Shown in pieces: positions 32,563-49,213 of a stretch of 64,000 nt of DNA; positions within the stretch are counted from its first letter, which is position 1; each line of letters begins with the position of its first letter. The notes under the pieces were generated by a model that was not told where the DNA came from, ran no database searches, and worked only from the letters and a program-made list of their open reading frames with translations. Location: positions 26,482 to 90,481 of the forward strand of contig CABZJI010000001.1 of NCBI GenBank assembly GCA_902526045.1, written 5' to 3'. Both the position numbers and the translations under genes were made by a program. This DNA is from an uncultured SAR86 cluster bacterium (GTDB lineage: Bacteria; Pseudomonadota; Gammaproteobacteria; Magnimaribacterales; AG-339-G14).

Positions 32563-32638
32563 GGGCTAGTAGTTCAGTGGATAGAACGTCTGCCTCCGGA
32601 GCAGAAGGTCGCAGGTTTGAATCCTGCCTAGCCCACCA
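32563..32638 (+). tRNA. tRNA-Arg(CCG)
   Basis: GGGCTAG/CTAGCCC acceptor stem, TCTGC-CTCCGGA-GCAGA anticodon arm, GCAGG-TTTGAAT-CCTGC T arm, encoded CCA; 76 nt. Confidence 0.96.
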
Positions 32639-45107: not shown

Positions 45108-45163
45108 GGTTAACCTCTCAAAATTTTTTAATTTAATTGTGTGTTGGGTTTAGAATACCCCTC

Positions 45164-45583
45164 ATGTTGGGAATATATCAATCTTCGTTAATTGGTTTAT
45201 GGTTCATCTTGGTTACGATCGTGGTTCAAGCAATGGTTTTAATTCATCTGCATCGCAAACAACCTAATTATAAAGTTGGTGTAATAGATCCTTCGTTAGG
45301 ACAAGAATCTTTGTTTTTTAGAGCGTATCGAACGTTTTGGAATTCAATGGAAAACATAGTTCCTGTTCTTGGAATGGCTTTGATCGCATTAGTATCTGGC
45401 TATAGTGCAACCAAACTTTCTATTATCCTTTGGACGTATGCGATTGCGAGAGTCTTTCATATGATTTTGTACTACATGGTAGCTACAGATAAGAATCCGA
45501 GTCTGCGCAGTATCTTTTTTAGTATTGGCTTTTTAGCAATGTTTTACCTGTTGATTGACTTGGGTTTATATTTAATTTTTTAA
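45164..45583 (+). CDS. MAPEG family membrane protein
   Basis: RAYRTFWNSMEN, ARVFHMILY; 4 TM; start reset to ATG 45164. Confidence 0.8.
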   Translation: MLGIYQSSLIGLWFILVTIVVQAMVLIHLHRKQPNYKVGVIDPSLGQESLFFRAYRTFWNSMENIVPVLGMALIALVSGYSATKLSIILWTYAIARVFHMILYYMVATDKNPSLRSIFFSIGFLAMFYLLIDLGLYLIF

Positions 45584-45617: not shown

Positions 45618-45914
45618 ATGTCCATGAAATTTAAGCTGTTTGCAGTTCTTTTTGCGCTCGTTTTTTCTGTAGGAATTATCTCCCATGAGACGTCGCATTA
45701 TGAATTGGATCATGGTGATCATGATCATGCAGATCATTCAGTTGAGCTCAGCGAAGATTGTTCAACTTGTTTAGCAGAACAAAGCGAGTTTGTTCAAGAA
45801 GAAACAACTCATCAACCTTCAGCAACGATTTCTGATTTCCTTGTTGTTAAAAAGACAAGGCAAATCAACCTTTCACCTAATCAACTCTCCATTCGTGCAC
45901 CGCCAAAAAATTAA
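45618..45914 (+). CDS. His-rich CxxC/RAPP leader protein (DUF2946/CruR-like)
   Basis: Hydrophobic N-terminus, HETSH..HGDHDHADH, CSTC, C-terminal IRAPPKN; 42 bp upstream of the TonB receptor. Confidence 0.75.
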   Translation: MSMKFKLFAVLFALVFSVGIISHETSHYELDHGDHDHADHSVELSEDCSTCLAEQSEFVQEETTHQPSATISDFLVVKKTRQINLSPNQLSIRAPPKN

Positions 45915-45956
45915 ATTTTAAATTTTTTTAATTTTTAAATTTTTTTTGGAGGTTTT

Positions 45957-48299
45957 GTGAAACATTTTATTTATTTTTTAGTAGTACTTTTTAGTGCACA
46001 ATTCTTAATAGCTGATGATGTTGAGGAAGTAACGGTTACCGCTTCTTTAATAGATCAGAATTTAAGTGAGGTTGGTGATCCGGTTCAAGTTTTATCCGGC
46101 GTTGATTTAGACGATCAAGGAAGAGCTAGTCTTGGTGAATCCATTGACGATCTACTTGGTGTAGCCAACTCTGATTATGGTTTTGCTACCGGTCAACCTG
46201 TTATCAGAGGATTATCGGGTCCCAGAATTAAAATTCTTAAAAACGGGATGGTTAACAGGGATGTTGCTGGTATCGGAGTCGATCATCCAGTTGAGATCGA
46301 TATGAACAACGTTCAACAAATCGAGGTAGTCCGTGGCCCTTCATCTCTGCTTTACGCGAACGGTGGCGTTGGAGGAATCATCAATATCGTTGATAACACC
46401 ATTGCAAGACAGGATTTCGATGGGTTAAGCGCAAACGTAGACTTTGAAAAGCAATCCGTAAATAGGGGATCAGTTGAAGCTTTTGGAATAACCAACATTG
46501 TTAATGGCATCAACTTTAGCTACTCCTATGAAAATACCGATTTTGAAAATTACGATATTCCAGACGGAGCAGTTATGCATTCTGAAGAAGAGCATGATGA
46601 ACACGAAGGTGAGGAAGAACATGACGAGCATGAGGAAGAAGAACATCATGATGAAGAACTTGGTTACTTAGAAAACTCTGATTATGAGCGTGAGTCTCAT
46701 AAATTTGGATTTTCAGTTGTTGAAGATTGGGGATACATTGGTGCATCTGCAAATATTTTAGAGACTCATTATGGTATTCCTTATCATGGCGAAGGCCACG
46801 GTGGTCATGGTGGCCATGGTGATGAAGAAGATCACGACGAGCATGAAGGTGAAGAAGATCACGATGAGCATGAGGAGGAAGAAGGTCATGATGAACACGA
46901 AGGTGAAAGAGTATTCTCTGTAACTGATTCCAACGAAGTAAACGTTCAAGGTTCTTACAATTTTGATGCAGGAGCAGTAAGCAAAATTAATTACTTCATC
47001 AGAGGAACTAATTATTCGCTTACAGAAGGGCATGCAGAGGAAGAAGGTCATGATGATCACGAAGGTGAAGAAGATCATGATGAACACGAGGGTGAAGAAG
47101 ACCATGATGAGCATGAAGATGAACATGGACATGGCGAAGAGGGTCCAACAACTTTCTCAAATGATTCTTATGAAATTGGAACAATTCTTGACCTTTCAAC
47201 TTCAAACTTAGGTCAAAAAATTTCTATCAATCTTGCCCAAGAAGAACAGTCCATTGTAGGTCATGAATCTTTTATGAATCCTACAAAGTCGGATGAATAT
47301 ACTGTTGGTTACTTCATGTCTAAAGATTTTTCTGATCATCACCTTGATTTTGGGATTCGTTATGACTCGGTCAGCAGAAATGGATCTTTAACTGAACGAG
47401 AAGAGCATGACGAGCATGAAGGTGAAGAGGATCATGACGATCATGAAGGTGAAGAGGATCATGATGAGCATGAGGAAGAGCATGGCGAGCAGACTTTTTA
47501 TAACGTCGACATGTCCAGTGCGAGTCTTGCATTAACTTATACTTACGATATCAATGAGAATGTAAAATTTCTAATTGGAGCAGCCTCTGTGGAAAGAGCA
47601 CCCTCTGCTTTAGAGCTTTTCATGAACGGTCCTCACTTAGCGACCGGAAGACTTGAAACAGGTAACGTCAATTTAAATGCTGAGAGATCCAATAACGTTG
47701 ATCTTACGCTTGAGTTTGATATCGACAGTTGGTTTGGAAACGTCTCTGTATTCGCAAATAACATTACCGATTACATCTACTTACAAGATGAAACCGAAGA
47801 AGATCATGAAGAAGAAGGTCACGATGATCACGGCGGATTAATAAAAGCTGACTATCTCCAAAAAGATGCTGAGTTTACTGGTTATGAATTAGAGTTTGGA
47901 ACCATTATTGATGTTGATAACGGAGAGGTTGAGGTTTCTTTTGGTAGGGACTCAGTTGAAGGTAAGTTTGCTGCCGGCGGTTACATCCCCAGAATGACTC
48001 CAACAAGGAACTTCTTTGATGTGTCCTACAGCAACGACGTTTTAAAAACGACTTTATCCCTTAAAGACGTTGAAGAGCAATCTAAGCTGGCGGTAAATGA
48101 AACTATTACTGGTGCATACCAAATGGTGGACTTCACCCTTTCAGGTACGGTTCCATTAGATCCTAATGTTGATTTGAAGCTATCGTTCTTTGCTTCAAAC
48201 CTTCTTGATGAAGCTGCACGAAATCATAATTCGTTTGTAAAAGACCAGGTCCCCTTACCTGGCAGAAACGTAGGTCTGAGGTTTAGCCTACGCTTCTAA
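45957..48299 (+). CDS. TonB-dependent receptor, ZnuD-like, with His/Glu-rich loops
   Basis: EEVTVTA TonB box, PVIRGLSGPRI, IEVVRGPSSLLY plug, ELFMNGPH, C-terminal F; GTG start after GGAGG. Confidence 0.92.
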   Translation: MKHFIYFLVVLFSAQFLIADDVEEVTVTASLIDQNLSEVGDPVQVLSGVDLDDQGRASLGESIDDLLGVANSDYGFATGQPVIRGLSGPRIKILKNGMVNRDVAGIGVDHPVEIDMNNVQQIEVVRGPSSLLYANGGVGGIINIVDNTIARQDFDGLSANVDFEKQSVNRGSVEAFGITNIVNGINFSYSYENTDFENYDIPDGAVMHSEEEHDEHEGEEEHDEHEEEEHHDEELGYLENSDYERESHKFGFSVVEDWGYIGASANILETHYGIPYHGEGHGGHGGHGDEEDHDEHEGEEDHDEHEEEEGHDEHEGERVFSVTDSNEVNVQGSYNFDAGAVSKINYFIRGTNYSLTEGHAEEEGHDDHEGEEDHDEHEGEEDHDEHEDEHGHGEEGPTTFSNDSYEIGTILDLSTSNLGQKISINLAQEEQSIVGHESFMNPTKSDEYTVGYFMSKDFSDHHLDFGIRYDSVSRNGSLTEREEHDEHEGEEDHDDHEGEEDHDEHEEEHGEQTFYNVDMSSASLALTYTYDINENVKFLIGAASVERAPSALELFMNGPHLATGRLETGNVNLNAERSNNVDLTLEFDIDSWFGNVSVFANNITDYIYLQDETEEDHEEEGHDDHGGLIKADYLQKDAEFTGYELEFGTIIDVDNGEVEVSFGRDSVEGKFAAGGYIPRMTPTRNFFDVSYSNDVLKTTLSLKDVEEQSKLAVNETITGAYQMVDFTLSGTVPLDPNVDLKLSFFASNLLDEAARNHNSFVKDQVPLPGRNVGLRFSLRF
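46578..47835 (+). repeat. Five blocks of degenerate 27-nt repeats encoding (D/E)HDEHEGEE
   Basis: Blocks near 46578-46658, 46786-46905, 47031-47140, 47395-47490, 47795-47835. Confidence 0.9.
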
Positions 48300-48310
48300 A
48301 AATATAAGCC

Positions 48311-48336
48311 AACCGCCCGATTAATTTCGGGCGGTT
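48311..48336. terminator. Hairpin terminator after TonB receptor
   Basis: AACCGCCCGA-6nt-TCGGGCGGTT perfect 10-bp stem between convergent genes. Confidence 0.75.
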
Positions 48337-48439: not shown

Positions 48440-49213
48440 TTACCCCTGGAAAATATGATGTACCCAATTGATTAATTTCGGGTGGTTCTTCACATCAATG
48501 ATGTATTCTTGCCCTCGACCTTTACAACGAGTTATACATTCCTTTTCGTCCTCCCATTTCAATCTGTTTAAAAAAGGATCTGATTTAGCAAAATATTTTT
48601 TTGGCAGTTGCCAGACAGAACGGGTCGCTTGATCTTTAGTTAAAACCAAGTTTTTATGAGTTTTTTTAAAATGACCGTAACCTCTTAAAGGTGATGATTT
48701 ATTCCCCAAAGTTAATTTTTTTGTTCCAACGTATAAGCAGTTATTACTAAATTTATAAAAAGCATGCGGATGCATCTTTTTTTTATTTTTGAAGTACTGT
48801 TGAATCGCCTCGTTTCCGTCGATAATTTTATCTATTTGGAGCCAGCCAAAAATGTGATGTAAGTCTCTACCGCCTTCTGAATAATTTTTGAACCATCCAA
48901 AAAATAGAAAAAGATCCCCCGGTCCAACTTGATTATTTCGTAACTCGGATTGTGAACTGCTTGCTTGCCCAAATAAACCTGTTTCTAAATTTGGATCGTA
49001 ATGACAATTATCGCTTGGCTTACTTTGTGCCTTGGATTCTTTCAGAGCATCGATACATCGAATGCCGTTCACACTGACGTCTTTAAATTTATCCGGCGCC
49101 GGTCCTGAGAAAGGAATGGGCAGAGAACACAAGCTTCCGTCTGAAAAAATAGGAGAAGCCACCCCACCAGAAGACGAGTCAAAGCCTTTTCTACTTAAAA
49201 TTATTCTTTTCAT
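48440..49213 (-). CDS. Nmad3-like (nucleotide modification-associated domain 3) protein
   Basis: ILSRKGFDSSSGG..SP..DG.L.SLPIP, CHYDP (HxD), FGQ, VGPGDLFLFFGWF, HIFGWLQI, HPH; recognised from memory. Confidence 0.7.
   Translation of the reverse strand: MKRIILSRKGFDSSSGGVASPIFSDGSLCSLPIPFSGPAPDKFKDVSVNGIRCIDALKESKAQSKPSDNCHYDPNLETGLFGQASSSQSELRNNQVGPGDLFLFFGWFKNYSEGGRDLHHIFGWLQIDKIIDGNEAIQQYFKNKKKMHPHAFYKFSNNCLYVGTKKLTLGNKSSPLRGYGHFKKTHKNLVLTKDQATRSVWQLPKKYFAKSDPFLNRLKWEDEKECITRCKGRGQEYIIDVKNHPKLINWVHHIFQG

Follow-up and report, generated by a model that had tools for sequence, protein, structure and literature searches.

What regulates the gene of a ZnuD-like TonB-dependent receptor in SAR86, a group that is among the most abundant uncultured marine heterotrophs? 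The gene is found on the 64,000-nucleotide (nt) stretch of a SAR86 genome analysed here (the window) and is preceded by a small open reading frame (ORF), whose product reads MSMKFKLFAVLFALVFSVGIIS-HETSHYELDHGDHDHADH-SVELSED-CSTC-LAEQSEF...NQLSIRAPPKN up to the stop codon. A sequence-only reading had proposed this ORF as a metal-sensing ribosome-arrest switch for the receptor, pointing to a signal-like N-terminus, a His cluster, the CSTC motif and a RAPP motif two codons before the stop, followed by a 42-nt U-rich spacer and the Shine-Dalgarno sequence of the receptor gene; all these elements are present where it had placed them. It is fairly likely that the ORF is a cis-acting arrest-peptide leader for the ZnuD-like receptor gene, which acts by unmasking the ribosome-binding site (RBS) of this gene, and that it does not encode a stable protein.

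The RAPP motif goes beyond chance because it is conserved, not because of its count in the window. The six frames of the window together contain a single R[AG]PP; shuffled sequences are expected to have 0.64 occurrences and 0.21 near a stop codon, and this lone occurrence is not significant by itself. Among 30 distinct coding sequences (CDS) of the leader, SIRAPP (S91-P96) is invariant and its codons vary, with CGC, CGT or AGA for Arg, GCA or GCG for Ala, and CCA, CCG or CCT for Pro. C48, C51, the CSxCLAE block and H23-E24-x-x-H27 are also invariant despite synonymous change, so His23 is encoded by CAC in 15 sequences and by CAT in the other 15, and H27 has likewise CAC/CAT variation. Six of the seven histidines of the leader are within residues 23-40, and the His/Asp run that carries H32, H35, H37, and H40 is mostly conserved. 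Residues 55-87 are largely variable in the same 30 CDS. The invariant residues with synonymous variation, together with this variable segment, are what selection on the translated peptide would leave. The region just N-terminal to RAPP is conserved as well, with N88, S91, and I92 invariant and Q89 and L90 nearly so. RAPP, on whose conservation the sequence-only reading had staked its proposal, is kept with CxxC in all intact orthologues, and the only departures among the matches of the protein search are one RSPP variant and one frameshifted sequence.

All 103 scored members have 41 residues between CxxC and RAPP. These include the 46%-identical protein P0126 (87 amino acids), whose alignment to the leader requires compensating +5 and -5 indels. 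The His-rich segment ahead of CxxC has 11-26 residues among the relatives, and only the CxxC-RAPP distance is fixed. The sequence-only reading had described an ORF of 98 amino acids, and this ORF is present, but its start is not conserved: with 30 related upstream regions aligned, other SAR86 loci have ATT, ACG, TCG or TTG in place of ATG 45618, while ATG 45624 (MKFKL...) is invariant. ATG 45624 is thus the likelier start of the leader, which gives a conserved product of 96 amino acids.

The protein search found 154 relatives of the leader in marine metagenomes, and the leader is found in 10 species-level SAR86 genomes and in 20 further metagenome loci. A profile search against 1.84 billion representative proteins returned the SAR86 family, some fragments, the divergent P0126, one spurious match, and nothing else. 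By these searches, the leader family is a narrow lineage centred on SAR86. The conservation of the leader-receptor pair, which had been suggested as a check, is borne out by synteny in all SAR86 loci: the order MAPEG gene, leader, GTG-start receptor is kept in the 10 SAR86 species genomes and in metagenome contigs, and the spacer between leader and receptor has 36-43 nt and a highly conserved sequence. The coordinates of the locus are given in Table 1. The last stretch of a 5-kb contig binned as a Flammeovirgaceae metagenome-assembled genome (L013) is a SAR86-type leader (89% identity) cut off after codon 27, and this contig is probably mis-binned. The 562-bp contig that encodes P0126 (L015:1-562) has GGAGG followed by a seven-codon remnant of a receptor start (ATG AAA CAT TTA ATT TAT ATA TAA), and its receptor appears to be lost or broken.

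Table 1. Features of the leader-receptor locus, in positions of the window.
Feature	Position	Strand	Remarks
MAPEG-family membrane protein gene	45137-45583	+	Immediately upstream (34-nt gap) in every SAR86 locus examined
Leader ORF	45618-45914	+	98 amino acids from ATG 45618; 96 amino acids from the conserved ATG 45624
Signal-peptide-like N-terminus	45618-45683	+	Lys-rich start, ~15-residue hydrophobic run, GIIS ahead of His23; judged by inspection
H23-E-T-S-H27 (HExxH pattern), then His/Asp cluster H32, H35, H37, H40	45684-45737	+	
CSTC (C48, C51)	45759-45770	+	In the invariant block C-S-x-C-L-A-E
Linker from CxxC to RAPP	45771-45893	+	Exactly 41 residues; length invariant, residues 55-87 largely variable
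C-rich, G-poor stretch	45780-45940	+	Leader 3' third; GC skew down to -0.64
Putative arrest module N88-x-x-S91-I92-R93-A94-P95-P96	45879-45905	+	Stall geometry by analogy with ApdA, ApdP, and CruR
Predicted hairpin	45892-45961	+	5' arm 45892-45915, 3' arm 45934-45961; inverted repeat also detected
RAPP	45894-45905	+	Followed by Lys, Asn, and TAA (45912-45914)
Intergenic spacer	45915-45956	+	42 nt, 67% U (28 T, 10 A, 4 G)
Receptor ribosome-binding site GGAGG	45948-45952	+	TTTT (4 nt), then GTG start at 45957
TonB-dependent receptor gene, ZnuD-like	45957-48299	+	Plug and beta-barrel, 780 amino acids, GTG start

The codons of the arrest motif also take part in a predicted hairpin over the RBS of the receptor gene. 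Its 5' arm consists of the Arg-Ala-Pro-Pro-Lys-Asn-stop codons, and its 3' arm of the 3' half of the spacer, GGAGG, and the GTG start. The fold from the Arg codon to the receptor start has -20.9 kcal/mol in the window (z = -2.5). The Pro-Pro codons, which are CCG CCA here and CCA CCA in most loci, are predicted to pair with GGAGG, and the A-rich Lys-Asn-stop codons with the U run. A further predicted pairing, in most SAR86 loci, brings together UGUGAA, in which the start codon lies, and UUCGCG, which runs from the end of the Ile codon through the Arg CGC to the G that opens the Ala codon. All 14 loci folded, 13 from SAR86 and L015, have the same hairpin architecture as their minimum-free-energy structure; L015 has a different spacer sequence, yet forms a perfect 13-bp A/U stem plus GCGCCUCC/GGAGGUGU. 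The summed pairing probability between the RBS and the Pro-Pro codons reaches about 4 of 4 pairs in 12 of the 13 SAR86 loci, 2.9 in the remaining one (L003), and 5 of 5 in L015. Native spacers are 5-9 kcal/mol more stable than shuffled ones, and 0-3% of the shuffles are as stable.

Codon choice in the motif is also suggestive. The Arg of RAPP is encoded by CGC or CGT in 29 of 30 sequences, while of the Arg codons in 35 ORFs of the window, 61% are AGA and 4% CGC. CGC is complementary to the unusual GTG start of the receptor, and the lone AGA user, L015, has an ATG start. This rare Arg codon is a hint of selection at the RNA level. An Rfam scan of the region found no known cis-regulatory RNA; a sub-threshold match to an S15 leader on the opposite strand was dismissed. 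No intrinsic terminator was found between leader and receptor by a terminator scan.

Several points weigh against the proposed switch. With shuffled spacers, the RBS in many cases still pairs with the Pro-Pro codons, as the complementarity of CCNCC to GGAGG is intrinsic, and the pairing of the ribosome-binding region of the receptor ranks fifth of 60 genes in the window. The predicted hairpin is A/U-rich and, at -15 kcal/mol in the window, weak. Within SAR86, RNAalifold on a MAFFT alignment found almost no true covariation in it, and the consensus fold missed the RBS pairing, as MAFFT shifted GGAGG between sequence subsets, so covariation support is not claimed. The case of a different sequence with the same fold comes from a single 562-bp contig, L015. 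RAPP alone does not guarantee arrest either, since the adjacent N-terminal context matters (PMC12992588).

In the proposed mechanism, leader and receptor gene would be on one mRNA, because the 42-nt gap between them has no terminator. When the leader 3' end is free of ribosomes, the codons from Arg to stop would pair with the U-rich spacer, GGAGG and GTG, a pairing that is predicted and conserved, and the initiation region of the receptor would be hidden. A ribosome that translates the leader would stall at RAPP, as judged from the RAPP mechanism of ApdA, ApdP, and CruR, with its P site at 45900-45902 and a footprint of roughly 45885-45915, which would cover the whole 5' arm. The RBS would then be single-stranded about 33 nt past the leading edge of this ribosome, which leaves room for an initiating 30S subunit. 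By covering the 5' arm, the stall would free the RBS and the start codon and thus turn the receptor on, and termination and release of the ribosome would let the hairpin re-form and turn the receptor off.

During the stall, the putative sensor, which is composed of HExxH, the His cluster and CxxC, would be kept at a constant 41 residues from RAPP, which places it at the tunnel exit or farther out. C51 and P96 are separated by 45 residues, so this site would be outside the tunnel of a free ribosome. If the signal peptide, which is very hydrophobic, has engaged SecYEG, the sensor would be on the far side of the translocon, near its periplasmic mouth, and sensing would be periplasmic, as in CutF. 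Metal binding would fold the sensor segment, pull the nascent chain and release the arrest; the ribosome would terminate, the hairpin re-form, and receptor synthesis drop. That metal releases the arrest is the same sign as in CruR and the logical sign for an uptake receptor. Such a force-based mechanism would explain why spacing, rather than sequence, is conserved, as in CruR. Rho may additionally act on the C-rich leader RNA.

The closest published model is CruR (Bp2923) of Bordetella pertussis, a DUF2946 protein that has CxxC and RAPP at a fixed spacing and a TonB transporter downstream (PMC9426467, PMC12992588). Its arrest was demonstrated in vitro by toeprinting (PMC12992588), its CxxC-RAPP spacing is 45 +/- 2 residues, and five additional residues abolish regulation (PMC9426467). 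RAPP is among the most avoided tetrapeptides in proteomes (PMC12992588). RAPP arrest has been seen by cryo-electron microscopy for ApdA and ApdP. What the sequence-only reading had stated of CruR, ApdA, and ApdP is correct. The SAR86 leader and CruR are both small exported ORFs directly upstream of a TonB-dependent transporter, with an invariant CxxC, RAPP two or three residues before the stop, a strictly kept CxxC-RAPP spacing, a C>G-skewed 3' region, no stable predicted fold (as published for CruR) and the same expected sign, in which metal turns the receptor off. They differ in spacing (41 residues against 45 +/- 2), in length (96-98 against 145 amino acids), and in the additional HExxH/His cluster of the SAR86 leader, which gives no Pfam match to DUF2946. 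The SAR86 receptor is ZnuD-like, not copper-related, and no PepSY_TM gene is found downstream.

The two systems differ also in the intergenic region, and this bears on the alternative that works as CruR does, in which the main effect of the stall at RAPP is to prevent Rho from terminating transcription between the two genes, perhaps jointly with RBS unmasking. The C-rich, G-poor stretch in the leader 3' third could be a Rho-utilisation (rut)-like region, by analogy with the 'C>G bubble' of the cruR rut site. CruR, however, has a 162-nt GC-rich gap with a Rho terminator, while the SAR86 gap has 42 U-rich nt and the conserved predicted hairpin, whose masking of the RBS is the design of CutF and SecM. 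Termination as the main target is thus somewhat unlikely, and it is the strongest of the competing explanations.

In the CutF design, known from Rhodobacter capsulatus, the stalled ribosome melts a stem-loop that hides the RBS (PMC9973294; bioRxiv 10.1101/2025.02.05.636593). CutF is a DUF2946 protein which shares with the SAR86 leader a Sec signal peptide, a Cys motif, a C-terminal proline stall site and the RBS-masking stem-loop (CutF-cutO). It has CxxxC and an EF-P-sensitive PPP instead of RAPP, and the gene that it controls encodes a detoxifying multicopper oxidase. In SecM-secA, the stalled ribosome likewise opens a stem-loop over the downstream RBS, for which the counterpart in SAR86 is the hairpin predicted in 14 of 14 loci. 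SecM, ApdA, and ApdP have the RAPP or RAGP arrest core near the C-terminus of a small exported protein, as the SAR86 leader does, but they monitor Sec/YidC activity upstream of translocation genes, whereas the SAR86 leader precedes a metal receptor and has conserved metal ligands.

CruR and CutF both belong to DUF2946 (PF11162), and the features of the SAR86 leader match the published description of this family, of which it is at most a candidate member. By inspection, the leader has an export signal, with a small residue before His23, and a helix is predicted in this part; it also has a conserved CxxC, and RAPP two residues before the stop. Its spacing of 41 residues differs from the 45 of DUF2946 leaders and is equally strict. 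DUF2946 leaders are also described as first genes of an operon, with a long gap ahead of a gene for metal homeostasis; the SAR86 leader is directly upstream of a TonB receptor in all loci, but the gap is 36-43 nt and the MAPEG gene is found 34 nt upstream. Scanned against Pfam and NCBIfam, the leader and 13 relatives had neither a DUF2946 match nor any other meaningful one; the limit was E<=1 for the window ORF and E<=10 for the 14 members of the leader family.

A profile comparison, which covered the CzcI branch of DUF2946 only (25 of 28 aligned CzcI-type members match PF11162), aligned the SAR86 leaders with the CzcI-type proteins by hhalign with a probability of 56.7% and an E-value of 1.1e-4 over 58 columns, which comprise the signal peptide, HE, the His cluster, and DCxxC and leave out the C-terminus. 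This is suggestive of a distant common ancestry. In CzcI, which is encoded on the Cupriavidus plasmid pMOL30, and in its relatives, the signal peptide is followed by YCxHE, HLGHHEHxH, and DCGxCH; the linker after them measures 38 +/- 1 residues, and P(D/E)RPQW at the C-terminus is invariant. The elements come in the same order as in SAR86, with signal peptide, HE, HExxH-containing His cluster, D-C-x-x-C, fixed linker and proline-containing C-terminal motif, and then an operon for metal transport (Zn/Cd/Co); the C-terminal motif is P(D/E)RPQW and not RAPP, and the downstream genes are those of czcCBA efflux rather than of an uptake receptor. The CzcI proteins themselves (L042:13177-13524 for pMOL30 czcI; proteins P0128-P0263) resemble arrest-type leaders, in this case of the czcCBA operon for Zn/Cd/Co efflux. 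When plasmids were searched by tblastn with the C-terminal half of the SAR86 leader, no match was obtained.

Which metal would be sensed is indicated in part by the receptor. ZnuD homologues are derepressed under zinc limitation through Zur boxes, and two His with two Cys are the classical tetrahedral ligand set of Zn(II). The description of the target as ZnuD-like stands: the best NCBIfam match of the receptor is ZnuD (NF038289; 2.9e-64, 217.9 bits, well below the 950-bit equivalog cutoff) and its best match in the Protein Data Bank is ZnuD 4rdr (2.9e-34), followed by the next structure at 1e-10, with the copper receptor OprC at 1e-3. The receptor shares with the Zur-regulated ZnuD of Neisseria and Acinetobacter (4rdr) the Plug and barrel, and a His-rich insert at the corresponding His-containing segment of ZnuD, to which it is closest in sequence. 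It differs by its score (218 against 950 bits), by five long HDEHEGEE-type inserts and by a RAPP leader instead of a Zur box. These His/Glu/Asp-rich inserts (residues 206-236, 284-316, 357-396, 482-513, and 614-627; 46572-47837 in the window) are formed by repeated HDEHEGEE-like units, and the second comes after YGIPYHGEG, which aligns with YGLPAHSHE of ZnuD. The whole receptor has 45 His, 104 Glu, and no Cys, and the DHGDHDHADH of the leader resembles its EDHDEHE repeats. The insert repeats also produce spurious antisense ORFs at 46352-47532.

The claim that no Zur/Fur box is visible is confirmed: a scan of the whole window that allowed up to 3 mismatches had no match, and near the locus a relaxed Zur-type palindrome was likewise missing. 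In contrast, three plasmid-borne homologues of the receptor (~30% identity), from Acinetobacter baumannii, Xanthomonas sacchari, and Catenovulum adriaticum (L036, L037, L038), have a Zur-box palindrome upstream, such as AATGTTATAATATAACAA, and no leader ORF was found upstream of any of the three. The RAPP leader is also absent from the flanks of plasmid-borne TonB receptors of Xanthomonas, Catenovulum, Acinetobacter, Caballeronia, Polaromonas, and Burkholderia. On a Polaromonas plasmid (pE10SP1; L040:2664-2927), an 87-residue Cys-rich hypothetical ORF without RAPP is found between the genes of a zinc ABC-transporter binding protein and a TonB receptor, and may be a different kind of small upstream ORF.

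The leader of SAR86 thus appears to hold the regulatory position that Zur has elsewhere, and the sensed metal is most likely Zn(II), because of the receptor family, the Cys2His2-type ligand set, and the missing Zur box that homologous receptors have. A more specific proposal can be made only tentatively, as a possibility: in SAR86, Zur control of a ZnuD-type receptor may have been replaced by a co-translational zinc sensor, in which zinc folding of the HExxH...CxxC site, exactly 41 residues from RAPP, would pull the Sec-engaged leader and release the stalled ribosome, so that the RAPP codons could pair again with the RBS and the start codon. An engineered precedent is the fusion of the ADR1a zinc finger with SecM, in which zinc folding of a 29-residue Cys2His2 unit releases the arrest only at a sharply defined linker length (PMC4571824). 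H23 to C51 of the leader also spans 29 residues, so both have a 29-residue Cys2His2-type unit paired with an RA(G/P)P-type arrest. The optimum linker of ADR1a is 24-26 residues, with folding inside the tunnel, whereas the 45 residues between C51 and P96 would imply folding outside the tunnel or beyond the translocon.

Zinc as the sensed metal is opposed by other properties of the same elements, which would suit copper, or nickel or cobalt, with a receptor for the uptake of that metal or of a metallophore. Cu(I) is classically bound by CxxC as well, and the His/Glu-rich loops, which are not zinc-specific, could bind Ni, Co or Cu. CruR is copper-specific (PMC9426467), and RAPP upstream ORFs cluster with copper-related genes. 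Against copper, nickel or cobalt, the receptor is far nearer to ZnuD than to OprC, its homologues bear Zur boxes, the invariant ligands are two His and two Cys plus His/Asp with no Met, and no copper genes are found near the locus, so that a metal other than zinc is unlikely.

The sign of the response is the next point, since the architecture alone leaves it unfixed. CutF, a DUF2946 member whose stem-loop follows the same design, stalls in response to copper, opposite to the sign proposed for SAR86; with this polarity, metal would prolong the stall and induce the receptor. It would be physiologically illogical to induce an uptake receptor when the metal is abundant, ZnuD homologues are derepressed when zinc is limiting, and RAPP arrests intrinsically, in contrast to the EF-P-dependent PPP motif of CutF. 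Induction by metal is therefore distinctly improbable.

The ORF could also encode a functional exported metal-binding accessory protein, such as a chaperone or a partner of the receptor, in which RAPP is incidental or merely slows translation. Its signal peptide would agree with such a role, and so would the conservation of its metal ligands and its tight linkage with the receptor gene. An AlphaFold2 model of the leader, however, has a mean predicted local distance difference test (pLDDT) score of 54 with the signal-peptide helix as the sole confident part, which fits a transient leader better than a stable protein; a fold search with this model was dropped, as its confidence was too low. The CxxC-RAPP region is conserved far more in length than in sequence, RAPP is invariant, is the sole R[AG]PP in the window and is avoided in proteomes, and the arrest codons are predicted to pair with the RBS. 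An accessory protein is thus very unlikely. Slightly less credit still is due to a secretion monitor in the style of SecM and ApdP, in which pulling by the Sec translocon alone would release the arrest and tie receptor synthesis to export capacity, with no metal sensing: signal peptide and C-terminal RAPP are those of monitoring substrates, but the downstream gene encodes neither a Sec nor a YidC component, and the invariant HExxH, CxxC, and His cluster would be left without a role. A precursor of a ribosomally synthesised and post-translationally modified peptide or of a metallophore is rejected, as modification enzymes are absent nearby.

An arrest-peptide leader that unmasks the receptor RBS thus continues to be the favoured account, and the interpretation of the sequence-only reading is supported to this extent: all its computationally testable predictions held, and stalling and metal response would follow by analogy with the known leaders. 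According to a GTDB survey of 2025 (PMC12992588), the regions upstream of TonB-dependent receptors throughout the Gram-negative bacteria are enriched in small ORFs that have a signal sequence and, at the C-terminus, RAPP or RGPP; with this survey and the published arrest of CruR (PMC12992588) the general kind is already known. No paper that joins ZnuD with an arrest peptide was found in the literature searched. Judged from sequences and predicted folds, the new elements are a SAR86-specific family that is invisible to the DUF2946 model, a ZnuD-like (zinc-type) target without a Zur box, a Cys2His2-type ligand set with HExxH, and a CutF/SecM-style predicted hairpin in which the arrest codons themselves mask the RBS and the start codon.

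Arrest-peptide control of metal genes has, to our knowledge, been demonstrated experimentally for copper only, in CruR and CutF. If the proposal is true, the arrest-peptide principle extends to another metal and to microbes of the oligotrophic ocean, and the leader would be the first arrest peptide to respond to zinc and would do in nature what the ADR1a-SecM force sensor was engineered to do. Control of a costly receptor in a streamlined genome that has no Zur operator for it would then be explained as well. The use of arrest codons as an anti-RBS (CCNCC against GGAGG, CGC against GUG) is a simple design, which may be general for RAPP leaders. The system is compact, with about 340 nt (45618-45956), and is directly testable in E. 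coli or in reconstituted translation.

Leader and receptor may be co-transcribed with the upstream MAPEG gene or from a weak promoter-like site at 45543-45572. The other neighbours (DsbB, RmuC, SDR, Nmad3, SnoaL, MazG-like, DUF1330, esterase, SRAP, and DUF3429) have no tie to metal homeostasis. A perfect GC-rich hairpin at 48311-48336 (AACCGCCCGA...TCGGGCGGTT), which is located between the receptor gene and the convergent gene of the Nmad3-domain protein (48440-49213, minus strand), is probably a bidirectional terminator. The window also has a 6S RNA gene at 65-235 on the minus strand (Rfam, 50 bits) and a tRNA-Arg(CCG) gene at 32563-32638 on the plus strand.

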